A stretch of DNA of 64,000 bases from Bacillota bacterium (GTDB lineage: Bacteria > Bacillota > Sulfobacillia > JBFLWA01). The position numbers were made by a program, and so were the translations under genes. The stretch is from the NCBI GenBank assembly GCA_040758135.1, contig JBFLWA010000005.1, forward strand, positions 73,102 through 137,101, given 5' to 3'. Shown here in pieces: positions 3,910 to 47,221 of this stretch (the first letter of the stretch is position 1; each line of letters begins with the position of its first letter). Under the pieces are notes generated by a model, which did not search any database, was not told the origin of the DNA, and saw only the letters and a list, made by a program, of their open reading frames with translations.

Positions 3910-5316
3910 CTACTGCACTGGATAGCTCACTACGCCATCCCGCTTCCGGTTCTCGTCGACCATGGCCAAGTCGGTCTTAATCCTGCCGGCCATCCGCTCC
4001 TGCAGGAACTTCTCGGCCTGCTGCGGGAAGAGCGCGTAGGAGACCACATCCTCCTCAGTCTCCATGTACTCGGCAACGCCCCGCTTGGCCTCCTCCATCC
4101 CTGGCCCGATCAGGTCGGCCGGCCGGAAGGTGATCGGCTCCTCGTCGCCGATAATCTGCCGGCGGATCTCCTCATTGACCTTCCCCGGTGGGCGGCCGTA
4201 GTAGCCCTTGAGGTACTGCTTGATCTCGTTGGTGACCATCTTGTAGCGGCCTCCGGCCAGGACATTCAGCGAGGCCTGGGCGCCCACCATCTGGCTGGAC
4301 GGAGTGACCAGTGGCGGGAAGCCGAGGTCCTCACGCACCCGCGGCACTTCGGCCAACACGTCATCCAGTTTATCCAGCGCGTTCTGCTGCTTCAGCTGGG
4401 TGACGAAGTTGGAGAGCATGCCGCCGGGGATCTGGTAGATCAGGACGTTGGTATCAATGGTCGTACCGACATCAAACGGAGCGTACTTCTGCCGCACTCC
4501 CTTGAAGTACTGGGCGACCTCCGACAGCTGCTTAAGATCGAGCCGGGTATCGTACTCGGTGCCCTCCAGGGCGGCCACTATGGTCTCGGTGGGCGGCTGG
4601 GAAGTGCCCAGAGCCAGGGAGCTGATGGCAGTATCAACGATATCGGCCCCAGCTTCGATAGCCTTCAGGTAGGCCATGGAGGCTAGGCCGCTGGTGTAGT
4701 GGCAGTGTAGCTGCAGCGGTAGGTCAACGGCGGCCTTCATTTCGGAAATAATCTCGTAGGCGGCCCTGGGCGAAAGGATACCGGCCATATCCTTCAGGCA
4801 GAGCGAATCCGCCCCCAGACCGGCCAATATCTTCGCAGTCTCTACATAGTGCTTCACATCGTGCACCGGGCTGATGGTGTAGACCACGGTGGCCTGCACA
4901 TGCCCGCCCTCGCGCTTGGTGATCTCAATGGCCTTCTCCATGTTGCGGACATCGTTCAGTGCATCGAAGATGCGCATGATGTCAATACCGTTCTTAATGG
5001 CCAGGCGGACAAAGGCCTCGACCACATCATCAGCGTAGTGTTTGTAACCGACCAGGTTCTGTCCGCGCAGGAGCATTTGGAGCTTGGTGTTCTTGAAGGC
5101 CGCTCGCAGCTGGCGCAGCCGTTCCCACGGGTCTTCGTTGAGGAAACGCAGGCAGGTGTCGAAGGTCGCCCCGCCCCAGACCTCCAGTGAATGGAACCCG
5201 ACCTTGTCCATCTTCTCGGCGATGGGCAACATGTCTTCAGTTTTCATCCGGGTGGCCAGGAGTGATTGGTGGCTGTCGCGCAGGGTAGTGTCGGTGATCT
5301 TCACTTGCCTGTTCAA
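3910..5316 (-). CDS. carboxyltransferase subunit (oxaloacetate decarboxylase alpha / pyruvate carboxylase subunit B-like), lacking a C-terminal biotinyl domain
   Basis: 468 aa. N-terminus MNRQVKITDTTLRDSHQSLLATRMKTEDMLPIAEKMDKVGFHSLEVWGGATFD is the canonical TIM-barrel carboxyltransferase domain. No AMKM biotin-attachment motif at the C-terminus. Confidence 0.75.
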   Translation of the reverse strand: MNRQVKITDTTLRDSHQSLLATRMKTEDMLPIAEKMDKVGFHSLEVWGGATFDTCLRFLNEDPWERLRQLRAAFKNTKLQMLLRGQNLVGYKHYADDVVEAFVRLAIKNGIDIMRIFDALNDVRNMEKAIEITKREGGHVQATVVYTISPVHDVKHYVETAKILAGLGADSLCLKDMAGILSPRAAYEIISEMKAAVDLPLQLHCHYTSGLASMAYLKAIEAGADIVDTAISSLALGTSQPPTETIVAALEGTEYDTRLDLKQLSEVAQYFKGVRQKYAPFDVGTTIDTNVLIYQIPGGMLSNFVTQLKQQNALDKLDDVLAEVPRVREDLGFPPLVTPSSQMVGAQASLNVLAGGRYKMVTNEIKQYLKGYYGRPPGKVNEEIRRQIIGDEEPITFRPADLIGPGMEEAKRGVAEYMETEEDVVSYALFPQQAEKFLQERMAGRIKTDLAMVDENRKRDGVVSYPVQ

Positions 5317-5367
5317 TGTGACCTCATCTCCCTCTGTTTTGCCTTGGAATTCCTTATTGCTGCGACC

Positions 5368-39823: not shown

Positions 39824-40225
39824 TTAGTGCTGTGGCTGAACTTGCGGTGATGATGCCCTGGCGATGGAAGGCTGGACACCGCGGCTCAGTTCCATAGTGG
39901 TGATCCCCCTGGCCGCAACGTCCTTTTCAATTACTCTTACAGCCACCATGGGATCCACCTGGTCTCCGCAGGTAAAGGAATCAACCGCCGCGTAGCCTAG
40001 CTCCGGCCAAGTGTGGATGGCCAGGTGGGATTCGGCCAGAATGGCCACCCCAGAGAGGCCGTGAGGATCAAAGCGGTGGACATAGACACTGATGAGTTGT
40101 GCCCCGGCCTCCTGCGCGGCGCGGCGGAGCATGCTCTCCAGGCACTCGGCGTTGTCTAGCGCCCGCTCACTGCAGAAAGTCAGTTCCGCCAGAACCTGCG
40201 AACCCAACTGGTGCTTCATGCGCAT
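39824..40225 (-). CDS. speH: S-adenosylmethionine decarboxylase proenzyme (pyruvoyl-dependent, class 1B)
   Basis: 133 aa. Processing-site region VAILAESHLAIHTWPELGYAAVDSFTCG. Confidence 0.85.
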   Translation of the reverse strand: MRMKHQLGSQVLAELTFCSERALDNAECLESMLRRAAQEAGAQLISVYVHRFDPHGLSGVAILAESHLAIHTWPELGYAAVDSFTCGDQVDPMVAVRVIEKDVAARGITTMELSRGVQPSIARASSPQVQPQH

Positions 40226-40499
40226 CCCTCCTTGTATGCCACCGGTAACGAGCTGCCAGTATTGAAACTATACCGCTGTCCTTTCTGGCTGATATTGTTC
40301 CCTACAGGCGGCCCACTCACCCGGTGTCTGTCTTCAGACGCAGGCGTTGGCTGCCACCTCACCGTATAGACAGAAGCCGGCGCCACCGATCGGCAACGTG
40401 CTTTCCTATTAGTTTTTGCGCTGACTTCTGATTGCTTCGCAGCCTATACTTGATAGAGAAAAGAGAGGTGTCAGCCAAGTCTGAAAGGCAGGTCATCTT

Positions 40500-40952
40500 G
40501 TGCAGCAGAACGCTTCCCGTGTCTACCTCTTCCTCCGCGCCATCTTTGCTCTCTCTGGGTCGATCATGTTTACAACCGACACTCTCTATTATGTATCCAT
40601 GCTCGGCCTGAACCCTCTGCAGCTGGTCCTGGCGGGGACCTTCTGCGAGCTTGCAGTAGTCCTCTCCGAGGTACCCACCGGCGTGGTCGCTGACTCGTTC
40701 AGCCGCCGCACATCGACGGTTATCGGCACCGGGATCACGGCTGCCGCTTTCCGGCTAGAGGGCAGCGTCCCCTGGCTGGGTGGGCTTCTACCCTTTTTCG
40801 TCGGAGTGGTGCTGGCCGAGGTTATCCGTGGCATCGGCCTGACTTTCATCAGCGGAGCCGACAAAGCTTGGGTAACTAAGGAAGGCGGCGGAACCGGGAC
40901 TGTGCAGAGGCTGGATATTCTGGTCTGGAATATGGGGAAACGGCCCGCCTGA
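40500..40952 (+). pseudogene. truncated MFS-type transporter (N-terminal ~150 aa only)
   Basis: Hydrophobic N-terminus with an MFS-like loop (PTGVVADSFSRRTSTVIG). The ORF ends after ~4 TM helices. Confidence 0.35.
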
Positions 40953-41184
40953 GGGGTTGGCCGCTTTCGACGCTTCAACAGACTGAGGTTGAGAGAAAAC
41001 CGCGGGCTTCTCCGCCTCTCTTTTTACCGGTGAACCAAAAGAGTTTGCTTTTGCCCCAGATCGTAGTATTATAGGTTTAACCCGTAAATAAGCATAGTGA
41101 GTTTTCATCCGTCCTCCGGTTAGGAGAGTCCGGTGAGCAATTCTCTAGCTCTGTTCGGGTAATCTCTTGGGGAGGTCGAATTGA

Positions 41185-41487
41185 TTGTATCAGGATAAGG
41201 TCATCACCTGCCGCGACTGCAACACCGAGTTTGTCTTCACCGCATCTGAACAAGAGTTCTACGCGGAAAAAGGTTTTACCAACGCACCGAGCCGGTGCCC
41301 AGATTGCCGGGCAGCGCGTAAGCAGCAGAACCGGGGAGGCGGAAACAGAGACGGCGGTCAGCGAAAGGAGATGTACGAAGTCACCTGCGCTGCCTGCGGA
41401 GTCCGCACCCAGGTGCCCTTCCGCCCGAGCAATGACCGGCCGGTATACTGCCGGGACTGCTTCAGCAAGAATAATCGGCGCTACTAG
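41185..41487 (+). CDS. small protein with two tandem CxxC...CxxC zinc-ribbon modules
   Basis: 100 aa, TTG start after GGGGAGG. VITCRDCNTEFVFTASEQEFYAEKGFTNAPSRCPDCRAARK and VTCAACGVRTQVPFRPSNDRPVYCRDCF, separated by a basic/Gly-rich linker. Confidence 0.5.
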   Translation: MYQDKVITCRDCNTEFVFTASEQEFYAEKGFTNAPSRCPDCRAARKQQNRGGGNRDGGQRKEMYEVTCAACGVRTQVPFRPSNDRPVYCRDCFSKNNRRY

Positions 41488-41737
41488 AGACCAACGAAAG
41501 TTCCCTTGCCTCGGCAGGGGATCTTTTGTTTCGCCGCAGCAGGCGGCTAAATGAAGCCGGCCTGAGACAGCCTTAAGCTCCAGTGGTTATCGCTAACTCC
41601 CGCCACAATTCCTGATGGATATTGCCACCGGACCTCGCATATGGAGACTCCCTGGGATAACAGGGAGTCTGGGCTTGACCCGCTTTCGCGGACAACACTG
41701 CACTTGGGGTGTAAAGTCCAGAAAGGGTGGGGCCAAT

Positions 41738-41850
41738 GCCGAAGAGTCATCCTCCGCATCCCGCTGAGTTCCGAGCCCGAGCCGTTGAGCTGGTACGAAC
41801 GAGCGGCAAGTCGATTCCCGAGATCGCGAGGGAACTGGCGAGGACGGCCC
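41738..41850 (+). pseudogene. N-terminal remnant of an IS3-family transposase OrfA
   Basis: ATG at 41738: MPKSHPPHPAEFRARAVELVRTSGKSIPEIARELA, then stops. Classic IS3/IS911 OrfA HTH N-terminus. Surrounding ~700 bp (41500..42290) otherwise lacks coherent ORFs. Confidence 0.5.
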
Positions 41851-42289
41851 CTGCTTTGCCATAGGTGGACCATCGGCCGCTTTTTCCGCATAGAGTCGGC
41901 CCACATCGGGATGGGCCTAGGGGGCAGGCCTCGGAGCGGAACAAATGCCCCCGAGGGCTACAGGCTCTTGGGAGCCCCGAGCAGTCCGATGGACTCCCAC
42001 TCAGCGGTAGCGCCTCAGGAATGGTATGGGCCAGAGGGACCATATAACGGACCCATGGTTTTGAACAACAACGGGTGGTATGCCACGCAAAGCAGCCTCG
42101 GCTGGGCCAATGATGGGATGGGCTTCGCTGTCGCAGTGCACATAGTGTTCACCACCATGGACCTTGGCCGTGGACCGCTGGCCTTTCCTATAGGCAATCA
42201 GACCTGGGACGTAACGGGAGTGGGTGAGACAGGCCACGCGGTTCATTGATCAGATCCGGGAGTTTCTGGACGGACGCGAGGGAAACAGC

Positions 42290-42532
42290 TAGGCGGAGAG
42301 AGCAGAGCGCAGGGAGGGGGCAGCTGGTCCGGCCTCCCGCACTGGGCAGCGCACCGGCCTCGGCCGGCAGATGGTGGAATGGCTGGTTGCCCACTGCCGG
42401 CAGAACGGGCTGAAGCGAATCTGGCTGGAGACCAACCGCAACTGGACAGGGGTAGTCGCCTTCTACCTGAACTGGTGCTTCAGCGTCTTCCGGGAGGTCC
42501 CGGATGATGTCTACCTGGAGAAAGCGATATAG
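42290..42532 (+). pseudogene. C-terminal fragment of a GNAT acetyltransferase
   Basis: In-frame translation ...TGLGRQMVEWLVAHCRQNGLKRIWLETNRNWTGVVAFYLNWCFSVFREVPDDVYLEKAI* has the GNAT motif A/B region. No N-terminal half or start codon. Confidence 0.45.
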
Positions 42533-42859
42533 AGCAAAGAGGTGCGAGAATGCTCGCACCTCTTTCTTCAGCCAGACCACTCTCCCGCGGGCAGGGATTC
42601 GATCCGGCAGTGCAGCTCAACCACTGACGGCAGCGGTTCGGGTGCTGCAACCAGGTTGGTGGAGTCATAGATGGTTCAGGCAAGCAGGATGATGACCGGA
42701 TAGATGAAGGGCGAGGGCCTTCTGTCGCTCGACATGGTTGACCTCCTCTCTCGTAAGAGTGCAGTACGGCCGCGCGGTCGGTTTATTCCGTGCCTGCTGC
42801 CGGTCGGAGGAAAGCGGCGCTGCCTGTTGAACTCTCTACCTGCGGAAGGAGGAGGCGAC

Positions 42860-43354
42860 ATGACCAAGCTCATTCTGATCGGCGGAGCCCCGGGGATCGG
42901 CAAATCCACGGTGGCCCGCCTGCTGATGAACCAACTGCCCAACAGTGCCTGGTTGGATGGGGACGATGTCTGGCGGATGAACCCGTTCCGGGTGGATGCG
43001 GTGACCACCGCCATGGTCCAGCACAATATCGCGTACGTCCTGCGTGGCTTCATCGAGGCCGGTTTCAACTACGCCATTCTCTCCTGGGTCATGCACCGCC
43101 AGATCATCATCGACCAACTGCTCGACTCCTTGCAGGGCTTTTCCTTCCAGGCCCTGGTCTGTACCCTGGTCTGCAGTCCCGCTGCTCTGGCCGAGCGGCA
43201 CCGGGGCGACCCGGCACGCAGCGATATCTCGCAACTGGCCCTGGACCGGTTGGAGCAATCGCGCCAGCTGAAGACCTTGCAGATTGATACCGATGGACTG
43301 TCAGCCGGGGAGGTGGCGGCTCGCATCAGGGCAGCGATCGCCGCCGAGTCCTGA
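42860..43354 (+). CDS. P-loop NTPase/small-molecule kinase-like protein (AAA_33/shikimate-kinase-like fold)
   Basis: Start refined to ATG 42860 with a GGAAGGAGGAGG RBS. MTKLILIGGAPGIGKSTVARLL Walker A, DGDDVWRM Walker-B-like, ~165 aa. Confidence 0.6.
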   Translation: MTKLILIGGAPGIGKSTVARLLMNQLPNSAWLDGDDVWRMNPFRVDAVTTAMVQHNIAYVLRGFIEAGFNYAILSWVMHRQIIIDQLLDSLQGFSFQALVCTLVCSPAALAERHRGDPARSDISQLALDRLEQSRQLKTLQIDTDGLSAGEVAARIRAAIAAES

Positions 43355-44067
43355 TGGCCCAGACGACGATCAGGGAGACCGACCTCTACAAACCGATACG
43401 CGACTACCTGGTGAACCAGGGCTACCTGGTGCACAGCGAGGTGCGGGGTTGTGACATCACCGCCGTGCGTGGCGACGAGCTGGTGGTGATAGAGCTGAAG
43501 CGCAACCTCTCCGTATCCCTGCTGGTGCAGGCAGTGGAGCGGCAGCGCCTCAGCGATTCGGTCTATGTGGCTGTTCCGCGGCCATCGGGCAAGGTGAAGC
43601 GCAGTCACTGGCAGGGCGTGCAGCGGCTTCTGCGCCGCCTGGAACTGGGGCTGATTACGGTCGCCTTCAGCACCCGGCGTCCCCATGTGGAGGTACTCTT
43701 CCATCCCCTGCCCTATGAGCGGAAGCGGAACTCCCGGGCTAGGCGGGCGCTGTTGCGGGAGATCGCCGGCCGCTCTCACGAATACAATCAGGGCGGCAGC
43801 ACCCGTCAGCGTATCCGCACTGCATATTGGGAAAACGTCTTTCTGGTCGCCTGCGCCCTGGCCCGGACCGGGCCTAGTTCGCCCAGCAGTCTAAAGACCA
43901 TGGGAACCGGCGAGAAGACCCAGTCCATCCTCCATTTCAACCACTACGGCTGGTTCGAGCGGGTGGAGCGGGGGATCTATGATCTGACCGCTGAGGGCCG
44001 CCGGGCAGTTCAGGCCGAGCCGGAGCTGGCGGCCGAGTTCGCGGAGCGCCTGGTCGATCCGGAATGA
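43354..44067 (+). CDS. uncharacterised protein with N-terminal PD-(D/E)xK nuclease-like fold and C-terminal winged-helix-like region
   Basis: ATG overlaps the upstream TGA (TGATG). N-terminus ...YLVHSEVRGCDITAVRGDELVVIELKRNL shows the D...(E)xK pattern of restriction-endonuclease-like folds. C-terminus ...HFNHYGWFERVERGIYDLTAEGRRAV looks wHTH-like. Confidence 0.5.
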   Translation: MAQTTIRETDLYKPIRDYLVNQGYLVHSEVRGCDITAVRGDELVVIELKRNLSVSLLVQAVERQRLSDSVYVAVPRPSGKVKRSHWQGVQRLLRRLELGLITVAFSTRRPHVEVLFHPLPYERKRNSRARRALLREIAGRSHEYNQGGSTRQRIRTAYWENVFLVACALARTGPSSPSSLKTMGTGEKTQSILHFNHYGWFERVERGIYDLTAEGRRAVQAEPELAAEFAERLVDPE

Positions 44068-44099
44068 TCTCTGCTCGAGCCAGGAGGTAATCTGGTCCA

Positions 44100-44359
44100 G
44101 TGGCTTGCGGGGTCGGACGTCCCTCGGCCGCGTAGCCGATAGACACCGCAGCGATCAGCTCATCCTTGCGCCCCAGCCACTCGGCGATCAGCAGTTCGGC
44201 CACAAAGATATCGCAGATCCAGAGCGTCTCCAGCCCCATTTCCGGGCTGGAATCGGGGTTGTGGGTCAGGATGCAGACCGGAGCCTGCTCGATGAAGTTC
44301 ACTGACCACTCGGCACAGCGCTGAAGGCCATGATGCCGTGGGGGTACTAAAGGGCTCAC
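44100..44359 (-). pseudogene. nitroreductase-family C-terminal-like fragment
   Basis: Minus-strand ORF starting 9 nt after the rlmH stop: ...EQAPVCILTHNPDSSPEMGLETLWICDIFVAELLIAEWLGRKDELIAAVSIGYAAEGRP (IGY..E is the typical nitroreductase C-terminal block). It lacks an N-terminal half and runs into the convergent gene 43354..44067. Confidence 0.25.
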
Positions 44360-44367
44360 GTTCGCCG

Positions 44368-44844
44368 CTAGCGATGATACGGCTCCCCCCGCCGTATCCG
44401 TATCGCCCTATATACCTGCTCCAGCAGAATCACCCGCACCAGCTGGTGCGGAAACGTCATCCTCCCCAGCGATAGCCTCAGGTCCGCCCGCTTCCGTACA
44501 TTGTCCCCCAGCCCCGTCGCGCCGCCGATGACGAAGGCCACCTTGCTCCGCCCGGTCACCGCTAGCCGGTCTAGGTAGGCCGCGAACTCCTCCGATCCCA
44601 TCTCCTCACCGCCCAAATCCAGGGCGATGACGAAGGTTCCCTCCCCGACCTTCCGCAGGATGCTCTCTCCCTCCGCCTCGCGCACTGCCGCCTCCTCGGC
44701 CGGGCTGTATGCGGGCACCGGCAAGTCCGGCACCTCGGTGACCTGCACCCGGGCATAGGGGGCCAGACGCTTCAGATACTCGTCACAAGCCGCCTTCAGG
44801 TACTTCTCCTTCAATCTCCCGGTGGCAATGATCTCGATCTGCAT
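44368..44844 (-). CDS. rlmH: 23S rRNA (pseudouridine1915-N3)-methyltransferase RlmH
   Basis: Start refined to ATG 44844 (MQIEIIATGRLKEKYLKAACDEYLKRL...), 159 aa SPOUT fold. Confidence 0.85.
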   Translation of the reverse strand: MQIEIIATGRLKEKYLKAACDEYLKRLAPYARVQVTEVPDLPVPAYSPAEEAAVREAEGESILRKVGEGTFVIALDLGGEEMGSEEFAAYLDRLAVTGRSKVAFVIGGATGLGDNVRKRADLRLSLGRMTFPHQLVRVILLEQVYRAIRIRRGEPYHR

Positions 44845-45099
44845 ATCCCTCTTCCTCTCCCTGGTCGCGTAAAAGCACCGGCTGAGCCGGTGCCCTGCCC
44901 CTACACTACCAGATACTTGGGTGGCTTGTCGCAAAACTCGCAGGTGCACGGTGCCGTCCACTCACTGAAGTAGAGGTCAGCCAGGAGGTAGATATCGGGC
45001 GCCTGGTCCTCGTAGACTTCGAGGAAGGCATCGATCGCCTCCTCTAGATGTTCCTTGCAGACCACATACACGCCCTCTCCCCCCTTTGCGTCGACTTGG

Positions 45100-45906
45100 C
45101 TAGATGGGCAGCATCCGGCGCTGCCGCCGGTCGAACCCGACGACTTCAGTATATCCGGCCGCGCGAGCTAGTTCAACTGCCCGGTCGAGATCACGGCCAG
45201 CATCTGCCGGCTCGTGAGCGTCGGAACCCAGAGTAATGGGGATACCGAGATGCCGCGCCCGGGACAGGAGCGCAGGTGCGGGGTAGATCTCTCCCACTGG
45301 CTTCCGTATCCCGGCCGTATTGATCTCCAGGGCTATACCGGCTGTAGCTACCGCCTGCAGCGCTTCCTCTACTGCCTCCTCCACCGGCTCGGTTGGCCGG
45401 TAACCATAGATCTTGATCAGGTCCGGGTGGGCCAGGCTGTCGAAGAGACCGCTCCGGGCCGCCTGGGCCAGCAACTGGTAATACTCGCGGTAGCTGGCCT
45501 CGACATCGCGCCCGTCCCACTCGAAAATGTTGCGGGGATCATCGAACCCCCAGTCCCCCAGCCAGTGGACGGAGCCCAGGATATAGTCAAAGGGGTAGGC
45601 CGACAGAAACTCTCTGGTCGTCTCACACCATGGGGCCACGAAGTCGACTTCGATGCCGATGCGGATGGGGTAGCCCTCGTCCCGCAACCCCTGCAGAAGG
45701 GCGAAGTAACCGTCGATATCCTCCAGGTCCCGCTCCTTCCAGTGGTTGCAGCGCAGGTGTCCGGCCTCCCGGAAACGGTCGAAGTGCTCTGAGAAGCCAA
45801 ACTCCTGTACGCCCCGTGCCCCGCCCTGGTCGATGAAGCGCAGCGCCCACTCCGGGGTTAGTGGTCCCCGTTCCAGGTGCTGGTGGTAGTCTATGGGAAT
45901 TTTCAT
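45100..45906 (-). CDS. PHP-family metal-dependent phosphoesterase (histidinol-phosphatase HisJ-like)
   Basis: 268 aa. MKIPIDYHQHLERG...; conserved His/Asp clusters of the PHP domain (GSVHWLGDWGFD, LGSDAHEPAD). Confidence 0.7.
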   Translation of the reverse strand: MKIPIDYHQHLERGPLTPEWALRFIDQGGARGVQEFGFSEHFDRFREAGHLRCNHWKERDLEDIDGYFALLQGLRDEGYPIRIGIEVDFVAPWCETTREFLSAYPFDYILGSVHWLGDWGFDDPRNIFEWDGRDVEASYREYYQLLAQAARSGLFDSLAHPDLIKIYGYRPTEPVEEAVEEALQAVATAGIALEINTAGIRKPVGEIYPAPALLSRARHLGIPITLGSDAHEPADAGRDLDRAVELARAAGYTEVVGFDRRQRRMLPI

Positions 45907-47069
45907 CGGTTCAGACTTTCAGGGATCTCGGAGAGGGTAGCCTGGAATGTGCGTTCCCGGCCGCTGCGCACGATGACTACGCTCACCCGGTCGCCCGGCT
46001 TCTTTGTATCCAGCACGGCCCGGAGCTCTTCCACCGTGTTCACTGCCTGACCGTCAATGGTCAAGATGATATCCCCCGGGCGGACCCCTGCTGCCGCCGC
46101 CGGGCTACCGGTGATGACCTCACCCACATAGAGGCCTTTGGCAATCTGGATATTGTACCGGGCCGCGGTCGCTTTGTCCATCACCGCTACACCCAGCCAC
46201 GGGCGAATCACCCGACCGTACTGGACTAGTTGGTTGACGATGGTGCGGACTGTATTAATGGGAATGGCGAAACCCAGCCCTTCCCGATCGGCCCCCTGCA
46301 GCTTCAGGGTATTGATGCCAATAACTTCTCCCCGGGCGTTGCAGAGGGGGCCTCCGCTATTACCTGGATTAATGGCGGCATCGGTCTGGATCAGGTTGAA
46401 GGTGCGCTCACCGTAACTTAGCTTGCGGTTGAGGCCGCTGATGATCCCAGCAGTTACTGTCCGCTGGAACTCCACAATGTCAATGGGGTTGCCAATGGCC
46501 ACCGCCAACTCGCCGACCCGGACGGCATCAGAGTTGCCGAAGGTCGCCACCGGCAGGTTAGCCGCGTTAACCTTGATAACCGCGAGGTCGGTAGCCTTGT
46601 CAGCCCCTACTACCTGGGCGGGCAGGCGCTGTCCGTCGGCCAGCAGGACAATTAGCTCTGAGGCGCCCTCGATGACATGGTTATTGGTGACTATATAACC
46701 ATTGGAGTCGAAGATAACGCCGGTGCCGCCGGAAATCCGCTCATAGGTTCGGCCGAGGAGATCCCGGGCGTAGCTTTTGTTGATGATCCCCACCACCGCC
46801 GGGGCCACCCGTTCCGAGACATAGGCGGCTGCGGTCTCAGCGGAGCCCGGTGCGGTCGGAGTCCCGACCCCTTGACCTGACGGTGGCTCATAGAGGTAGG
46901 GGCGCCGACCCTGAAAGATAGGCATATAGGTGAACATCGCGCCCACCAGCAATCCACCGATGATAGCACTGACCAGCGCGACAAGAGCATACGAAGGGTA
47001 GCTGCGGTTACGACGGGTATCCCGGTGTCCCCGGAAAACCTCGTAGTCTGGCCGAAAGAACTCGTCCAT
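45903..47069 (-). CDS. htrA: HtrA/DegP-family serine protease with C-terminal PDZ domain
   Basis: Start refined to ATG 47069 (MDEFFRPDYE...) with an AAGGAGAGGAG RBS. N-terminal TM segment; trypsin-like catalytic GNSGGPL; PDZ domain. Confidence 0.85.
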   Translation of the reverse strand: MDEFFRPDYEVFRGHRDTRRNRSYPSYALVALVSAIIGGLLVGAMFTYMPIFQGRRPYLYEPPSGQGVGTPTAPGSAETAAAYVSERVAPAVVGIINKSYARDLLGRTYERISGGTGVIFDSNGYIVTNNHVIEGASELIVLLADGQRLPAQVVGADKATDLAVIKVNAANLPVATFGNSDAVRVGELAVAIGNPIDIVEFQRTVTAGIISGLNRKLSYGERTFNLIQTDAAINPGNSGGPLCNARGEVIGINTLKLQGADREGLGFAIPINTVRTIVNQLVQYGRVIRPWLGVAVMDKATAARYNIQIAKGLYVGEVITGSPAAAAGVRPGDIILTIDGQAVNTVEELRAVLDTKKPGDRVSVVIVRSGRERTFQATLSEIPESLNR

Positions 47070-47221
47070 GGTCTCCTCTCCTTTTCTCAGTATTCGATAG
47101 TCTTCCCTAACTGCAATTATAGCCAACGGCCAGACCAAAGCTCAATAGATACTGCAGGCTTCTCGGAGGACGAGACCGCGCCGAGGGGGCCCGCCTACGG
47201 CGATGCCCCCTCTTCATTGGC

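Follow-up and report, generated by a model that had tools for sequence, protein, structure and literature searches.

We examined a 64,000-nucleotide window of a Bacillota metagenome-assembled genome (MAG) (Sulfobacillia; JBFLWA01; assembly GCA_040758135.1, contig JBFLWA010000005.1, positions 73,102 to 137,101), in which two adjacent genes between a zinc-ribbon gene and rlmH had been put forward as a possible defense or toxin-antitoxin-like module. The first gene (42860-43354, +) encodes a 164-aa P-loop protein of the small-kinase fold, referred to here as protein 1, as judged from Pfam, a family alignment, an AlphaFold model, Protein Data Bank (PDB) profiles, and Foldseek. The second gene (43354-44067, +) encodes protein 2, a 237-aa member of the DUF2161 (COG5482-type) family with a putative PD-(D/E)XK nuclease domain and a C-terminal winged helix. 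The coordinates, motifs, and stop/start overlap of the original prediction hold, with the length of protein 1 corrected from 165 to 164 aa. Contig JBMOND010000001.1 of the Bacillota MAG GCA_049323415.1 contains a sequence identical to the window.

The P-loop gene is preceded by a strong Shine-Dalgarno-like sequence, AGGAGGAGG (42847-42855, +), located 4 nt 5' of its ATG, and its product begins with MTKLILIGGAPGIGKST. The TGA stop codon of this gene (43352-43354) and the ATG start codon of the DUF2161 gene (43354-43356) form a TGATG overlap (43352-43356, +) in which one base is common to both genes. Reading of the sequence found no Shine-Dalgarno-like sequence before the second ATG, which together with the TGATG overlap is consistent with translational coupling. 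Stop/start overlaps of 1 or 4 bases are common between adjacent bacterial genes and are unremarkable alone. A simple scan of positions 41400 to 44500 detected no sigma-70-like promoter, a result that is uninformative. Compared with strain L004 (~99% identical DNA), the P-loop gene carries three nonsynonymous changes (N70S, F94L, and I160M) and no synonymous changes, and the DUF2161 gene carries no differences at all, which are too few changes for inferring selection. Most of the differences from L004, indels included, fall within 42500-42750, in and just downstream of an acetyltransferase fragment described below.

The original prediction held that the pair could be a functional NTPase-plus-nuclease module and had named a lack of conserved adjacency in other genomes as evidence against it. 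A scan for DUF2161 among contigs from one genome per species returned at least 552 encoding stretches, from which 80 loci were kept, spanning Armatimonadota, Hydrogenedentota, Nitrospirota, Chloroflexota, Spirochaetota, Proteobacteria, Bacilli, Clostridia, and others. P-loop neighbors were searched for at the DUF2161 loci by tblastn using protein 1 and 37 of its homologues. By this search, the two genes are adjacent only in four contigs (L001 to L004), all belonging to this one MAG species, and a P-loop gene adjoins DUF2161 in 0 of the 80 loci from other species; a single weak P-loop match was found at one locus (L072), approximately 5 kb from DUF2161. The reverse comparison gave the same picture, with DUF2161 present in none of 33 metagenome loci carrying P-loop homologues. 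The closest homologues of either protein are likewise unpaired. The nearest P-loop homologues (~50% identity) adjoin HAD hydrolases and a GH9 gene or overlap a methyltransferase gene, the nearest DUF2161 homologue (66% identity) is flanked by genes for a flavin adenine dinucleotide (FAD) oxidoreductase and a HicB-like protein, and in a Bacillota relative (L124) a DUF4363 gene lies upstream of DUF2161.

No other partner of DUF2161 emerged from these neighborhoods. Clustering of the flanking open reading frames (ORFs) identified no neighbor common to more than 9 of the 80 loci, and no Pfam family occurred in more than 4 of 132 immediate neighbors. The neighbor families are mostly metabolic or housekeeping, such as phosphotransferase system (PTS) components, TIM-barrel isomerases, squalene cyclase, DEAD helicases, and RNase D-like proteins, and a PADLOC screen of the same 132 neighbors returned only generic helicase matches. 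Neither protein of the pair had a significant match in PADLOC-DB 2.0, the best being mad8 (E value of 3.6e-4, confined to the P-loop region) and AbiEi (E value of 0.012). In other genomes, DUF2161 often closely follows or overlaps varying upstream genes on the same strand; tight spacing is therefore usual for DUF2161 whatever its partner. Members of the protein 1 family are also tightly packed with varying partners. The gene for the closest homologue, P0122 (L120:4001-4543; ~52% identity), shares 4 bases with the gene that follows it, which encodes a class I S-adenosylmethionine (SAM) methyltransferase (4540-5340), and another homologue, P0125, is preceded by two HAD hydrolase genes.

We also considered the pair as a mobile cassette and found no evidence for one. 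Plasmid matches to DUF2161 are mostly to large alphaproteobacterial replicons of 0.3 to 2 Mb, which we read as chromids, phage matches cover the N-terminal domain only, and the plasmid search with protein 1 gave a single match. Because the pairing is not conserved in 80 and 33 independent loci and the closest homologues are unpaired, the two are probably evolutionarily independent accessory genes that came to lie head to tail in one transcription unit in one Bacillota lineage, rather than a conserved two-component system.

The original prediction had assigned no family to the pair, which is now superseded for protein 2, a clear member of DUF2161 (PF09929; 126.5 bits versus a cutoff of 27; E value of 7.2e-37), with the full profile (positions 1 to 118) aligned to residues 101 to 218. 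The NCBI record of an identical protein (P0001) bears the name "DUF2161 family putative PD-(D/E)XK-type phosphodiesterase." The family is very widespread and unusually conserved: one search returned over 1,500 clusters, most at ~55% identity and from many phyla, and another gave more than 550 species matches. A nuclease signature and a C-terminal winged helix had been proposed from the sequence, and both are borne out. The CDITAV and ELVVIELK motifs occupy residues 33 to 38 and 42 to 49, respectively. When 32 homologues spanning many phyla are aligned (mean column identity, 57%), E8, C33, D34, E47, K49, and Q59 do not vary, and conservation of L48 is at least 90%. In the C-terminal half, conservation is strong in a GRSxxYNxGGS loop and also evident in a WF-R...Y...G element.

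The Pfam model of DUF2161 covers only the second beta unit and the winged helix (43654-44007), and the E...CD...ELK core lies outside it. Residues 1 to 100 of protein 2 (43354-43653) match no Pfam model at an E value of ≤1, and the MmcB-like family (PF06319) is not matched by the full protein at an E value of ≤0.1 or by its N-terminal 106 aa at an E value of ≤1. Sequence searches of the PDB with protein 2 gave no match even at an E value of ≤10. Homologues of the nuclease domain (residues ~5 to 105, 43354-43671) are found at the N terminus of 240-aa proteins of SPO1-like Bacillus phages. SPO1 gp1.5 (L123:2504-3226) aligns to this domain with an hhalign probability of 97.7 (E value of 1.5e-12), the homologue from phage D6E matches the same residues, and protein 2 also matches phrog_12193 (E value of 4.5e-11). 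Since gp1.5 itself weakly matches the MmcB-like family (E value of 0.004; below threshold at 17.2 versus 22 bits), it links DUF2161 to that family.

The AlphaFold model of protein 2 (predicted local distance difference test [pLDDT] score of 84.6) displays a canonical alpha-beta-beta-beta-alpha-beta nuclease core. The N-terminal nuclease domain (residues ~1 to 125; 43354-43728, +) contains E8, D34, E47-x-K49, and Q59; in the model, strand 2 begins at D34 and strand 3 ends with E47-x-K49. The core is followed by a small second beta unit, a poorly modeled loop (residues 141 to 153), and a three-helix-plus-hairpin winged helix-turn-helix (wHTH) (residues ~155 to 237; 43816-44064, +) that resembles MarR/PadR regulators. 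Foldseek returned weak matches only, the archaeal resolvases Hjc among them (E value of ~0.02), and the C terminus has very weak wHTH matches to Mrr_N (E value of 0.04) and AbiEi (E value of 0.01). Protein 2 is thus predicted, from its sequence and model, to consist of a PD-(D/E)XK core whose active-site motif is intact, joined to a wHTH at the C terminus. The loop from S141 to R153 (43774-43812; consensus, SGDYNxGGS), in which S141, N145, G147, and G148 are invariant or nearly so, is the sole segment of the model with a pLDDT below 50 and may become ordered only on substrate.

Two surveys of fold prediction were the only literature that we found on this family. COG5482 was described as a group of ~230-aa proteins with an E-CD-ELK motif, similarity to archaeal Holliday junction resolvases (AHJR-like), and a C-terminal wHTH, and was predicted to comprise PD-(D/E)XK nucleases resembling Holliday junction resolvases, without a role being assigned (Feder & Bujnicki 2005, PMC1189080). 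It was later listed as group 90 with the function "unknown" (Steczkiewicz et al. 2012, PMC3424549). We infer the correspondence of DUF2161 to COG5482 from the motif and architecture rather than from a direct mapping.

Protein 1 carries a Walker A motif, GAPGIGKST, from G9 to T17 and passes the Pfam cutoffs of AAA_18 (39.7 versus 29.4 bits) and AAA_33 (29.1 versus 27 bits), with the Walker A motif present. Its AlphaFold model is confident (pLDDT of 94.6). The best PDB profile matches are to BH3686 (2bdt; E value of 8e-12) and TmrD (2vli; E value of 9e-11), and Foldseek also ranks 2bdt first (template modeling [TM] score of 0.81), followed by TmrD (TM of 0.72), gluconokinases, adenosine 5'-phosphosulfate (APS) kinase, chloramphenicol phosphotransferase, and the kinase domain of T4 polynucleotide kinase (PNK). 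The kinase-like P-loop fold that had been suggested for protein 1 is therefore upheld, and profiles and model alike indicate a P-loop protein of the small-molecule-kinase fold. The family is small, with 38 matches in the same search that returned more than 1,500 for DUF2161. Within the family alignment (A2), G14-K15, D33, D35, W38, P42, and W76 are invariant and R113 is nearly so; D33-G-D35 falls in WLDGDDVW, and R113 belongs to a segment that aligns with the lids of kinases. More specific assignments were not obtained. Protein 1 did not reach the NCBIfam cutoff for Gar/GrdA gentamicin resistance (NF038208; 41.6 versus 170 bits) or the cutoff for CPT (19 versus 22 bits). It passes the Pfam cutoff for Zeta_toxin at 23.0 versus 22.3 bits, over residues 3 to 64 and profile positions 17 to 80 of 199 only, and neither a full-length Zeta_toxin domain nor an epsilon/PezA-like neighbor was found at the locus.

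The region around the pair is decaying and accessory-like, as indicated by a GNAT acetyltransferase fragment, a weak transposase-HTH-like stretch, and a nitroreductase remnant. These flanking features had been described from the sequence, and the two enzyme remnants are well supported. The GNAT fragment (42293-42532, +) is the C-terminal remnant of a pseudogene (Acetyltransf_1 E value of 2.7e-6, profile positions 72 to 111 of 116). The nitroreductase remnant (44123-44317, -) corresponds to the C-terminal part of the gene and matches the nitroreductase of another Bacillota MAG (L040:902-1513, -) by BLASTP with an E value of 1e-18. It is 36% identical to the C-terminal part of the full-length L040 protein (PF00881; E value of 4e-33), has lost its N-terminal half and 31 internal residues, and has no Pfam match of its own. 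The described insertion sequence (IS) remnant is weakly supported as a possible N-terminal piece of an IS3-type transposase OrfA (41715-42044, +; HTH_Tnp_1 E value of 0.07 and HTH_23 E value of 0.03). The NCBI record calls no gene in the 1.4 kb that precede the P-loop gene. Farther upstream, a 150-aa ORF (40500-40952, +), which is a called gene in the NCBI record without a recorded Pfam domain, has a weak partial match to MFS_1 (E value of 0.0011, profile positions 212 to 310 of 347) and is possibly another truncated gene.

The arrangement of DUF2161 followed by a convergent nitroreductase gene is seen in this MAG (44060-44368, -, as a remnant) and in L040 (899-1513, -, intact); L124, a close relative of L040, has a different gene at the nitroreductase position. 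Two independent metagenome contigs, L003 and L004, both begin at window position 41798, the pattern that a repeat boundary would be expected to produce. On L002, an ENA contig, the upstream segment (window positions 39901 to 42144) is inverted relative to positions 42029 to 47189, and the junction carries 42029-42144 in both orientations. A fold-back artifact of assembly is the probable cause, and a real inversion is possible. Protein 2 is 57 to 61% identical to homologues from Armatimonadota, Anaerolineae, Nitrospirota, and a deltaproteobacterium versus 46 to 51% identical to those from Bacilli and Clostridia (loci L005 to L084), while the neighboring RlmH is closest to Bacilli (58 to 60%). 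This discordance hints at horizontal acquisition of the DUF2161 gene.

Several observations weigh against reading the two genes as independent. The 1-base overlap, the lack of a Shine-Dalgarno sequence for the second gene, and the intactness of both genes amid pseudogenes would also be expected of a functional pair. The nearest RlmH proteins are only 58 to 60% identical, and the lineage is without a close relative in the databases, so that only more distant lineages could be compared. Furthermore, L040, the only locus with the downstream nitroreductase synteny, ends 105 bp upstream of DUF2161, and its upstream gene is not covered. The PNKs of T4 and Clostridium among the structural neighbors of protein 1 make a nucleic acid substrate possible for this protein. 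Searching full texts for "DUF2161" yielded no papers, and we found no measured enzyme activity for members of either family.

In one rival explanation, along the lines of the original prediction, the two genes would form a lineage-specific defense or toxin-antitoxin-like module, with the DUF2161 nuclease as effector or toxin and the P-loop NTPase or kinase controlling its activity. The TGATG coupling without a separate Shine-Dalgarno sequence, the survival of both genes among the GNAT, nitroreductase, and possible IS remnants, the score of protein 1 barely above the Zeta_toxin cutoff, and the very weak Mrr_N and AbiEi matches of the protein 2 C terminus would all fit such a module. However, the pair does not co-occur in the independent loci or around the closest homologues, PADLOC returned no significant match for either protein, the neighbors of DUF2161 are not defense genes, and the Zeta_toxin match covers a generic P-loop region only. 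DUF2161 also greatly exceeds the P-loop family in distribution and conservation, and it evidently works without the P-loop protein. The lack of conserved adjacency largely refutes the module, and we consider it very unlikely. A younger version of the same idea, in which DUF2161 has newly come under the control of the P-loop kinase in this deep-branching Bacillota lineage as a nascent defense or addiction cassette, would fit the strict translational coupling and the persistence of both genes amid decaying neighbors; we give this kinase-gated nuclease only a slim chance.

Two further explanations concern the activities of the proteins. The pair could be a nucleic-acid end-processing unit in DNA or RNA repair, with protein 1 as a polynucleotide 5'-kinase alongside the DUF2161 nuclease, as the T4 PNK kinase domain (1ly1, TM of 0.74 to 0.79) and the Clostridium thermocellum PNK appear in the Foldseek list. 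Gluconokinases and chloramphenicol phosphotransferase score as high as PNK, though, the relatives of protein 1 at the sequence level are small-molecule kinases and resistance proteins (2bdt and 2vli) rather than PNKs, and the pairing is not conserved, which together make an end-processing unit highly improbable. For the second gene only, and compatible with the two genes being unrelated, DUF2161 could be mainly a DNA-binding regulator and not an active nuclease. A role in transcription regulation has been suggested for PD-(D/E)XK families fused to HTH domains (Steczkiewicz et al., PMC3424549), and the C-terminal domain of protein 2 does resemble MarR/PadR regulators. Against this, E8, D34, E47, and K49 are all invariant in the 32 diverse homologues, and no conserved neighboring target operon was found. 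Inactivated PD-(D/E)XK domains usually lose their catalytic residues, and a purely regulatory DUF2161 seems unlikely.

We therefore favor two independent genes that share an expression arrangement. Both genes probably lie on one transcript. Translation of the second gene would probably proceed by reinitiation at the TGATG and depend on ribosomes that terminate the first gene, since the second gene begins at the stop codon of the first, with no Shine-Dalgarno sequence of its own. The coupling is an arrangement of expression and not evidence of a shared function. Protein 1 would bind ATP through K15 of its Walker A motif and phosphorylate a hydroxyl group on some small molecule, with D33 and D35 of the LDGDD motif as putative catalytic and Mg-binding residues and R113 in a predicted lid. 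In protein 2, a minimal Hjc/MmcB-like core is predicted to coordinate Mg2+ through E8, D34, E47, and K49 and to cleave phosphodiester bonds, with the wHTH positioning the core on DNA. The target of protein 2 would be a conserved lesion or structure in DNA, on which it would act alone and, as other minimal resolvase-type nucleases do, probably in dimeric form. The conservation of both domains across phyla, the stand-alone contexts outside defense islands, and the MmcB-like/Hjc-like core argue for a stand-alone endonuclease, and the 50 to 60% identity across phyla, which includes the wHTH and the GRSxxYNxGGS loop, suggests that the substrate of DUF2161 is itself conserved. This points to a role in repair or recombination rather than in sequence-specific restriction.

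These results remove a candidate NTPase-plus-nuclease defense module and place both genes in existing families. DUF2161 can be viewed as a stand-alone nuclease-wHTH protein with an intact predicted active site, and this window gives no special handle on its function. Both genes are ordinary new members of existing uncharacterized families. Protein 1 shares the P-loop small-molecule-kinase fold with BH3686 (2bdt) and the Deinococcus tunicamycin-resistance protein TmrD (2vli), and also with gluconokinase, chloramphenicol phosphotransferase, and Gar/GrdA, although at only 20 to 24% identity, and its family signature, WLDGDDVWRMNPF, is unlike that of any characterized kinase compared. The Zeta/PezT toxin kinases also share the P-loop kinase fold, but the match is confined to the Walker A region, and protein 1 is without an epsilon/PezA-type partner. 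MmcB has a role in the repair of mitomycin C damage. The MmcB-like/DUF1052 family (PF06319), with the structure 3dnx (SPO1766), is 16% identical to protein 2, and its members do not have the C-terminal wHTH. The archaeal resolvases Hjc and Hje (1gef, 1hh1, 2eo0, and 4tkd), proposed in 2005 as the best templates for COG5482 (PMC1189080), have the same minimal alpha-beta-beta-beta-alpha-beta core and E...D...ExK motif as protein 2, whereas there is no significant sequence similarity between them and Hjc is without a wHTH. The closest correspondence is with DUF2161/COG5482 itself, of which protein 2 is an ordinary member, with the length of ~230 to 240 aa, the E-CD-ELK motif, the C-terminal wHTH of ~100 aa, and 50 to 66% identity to many other members.

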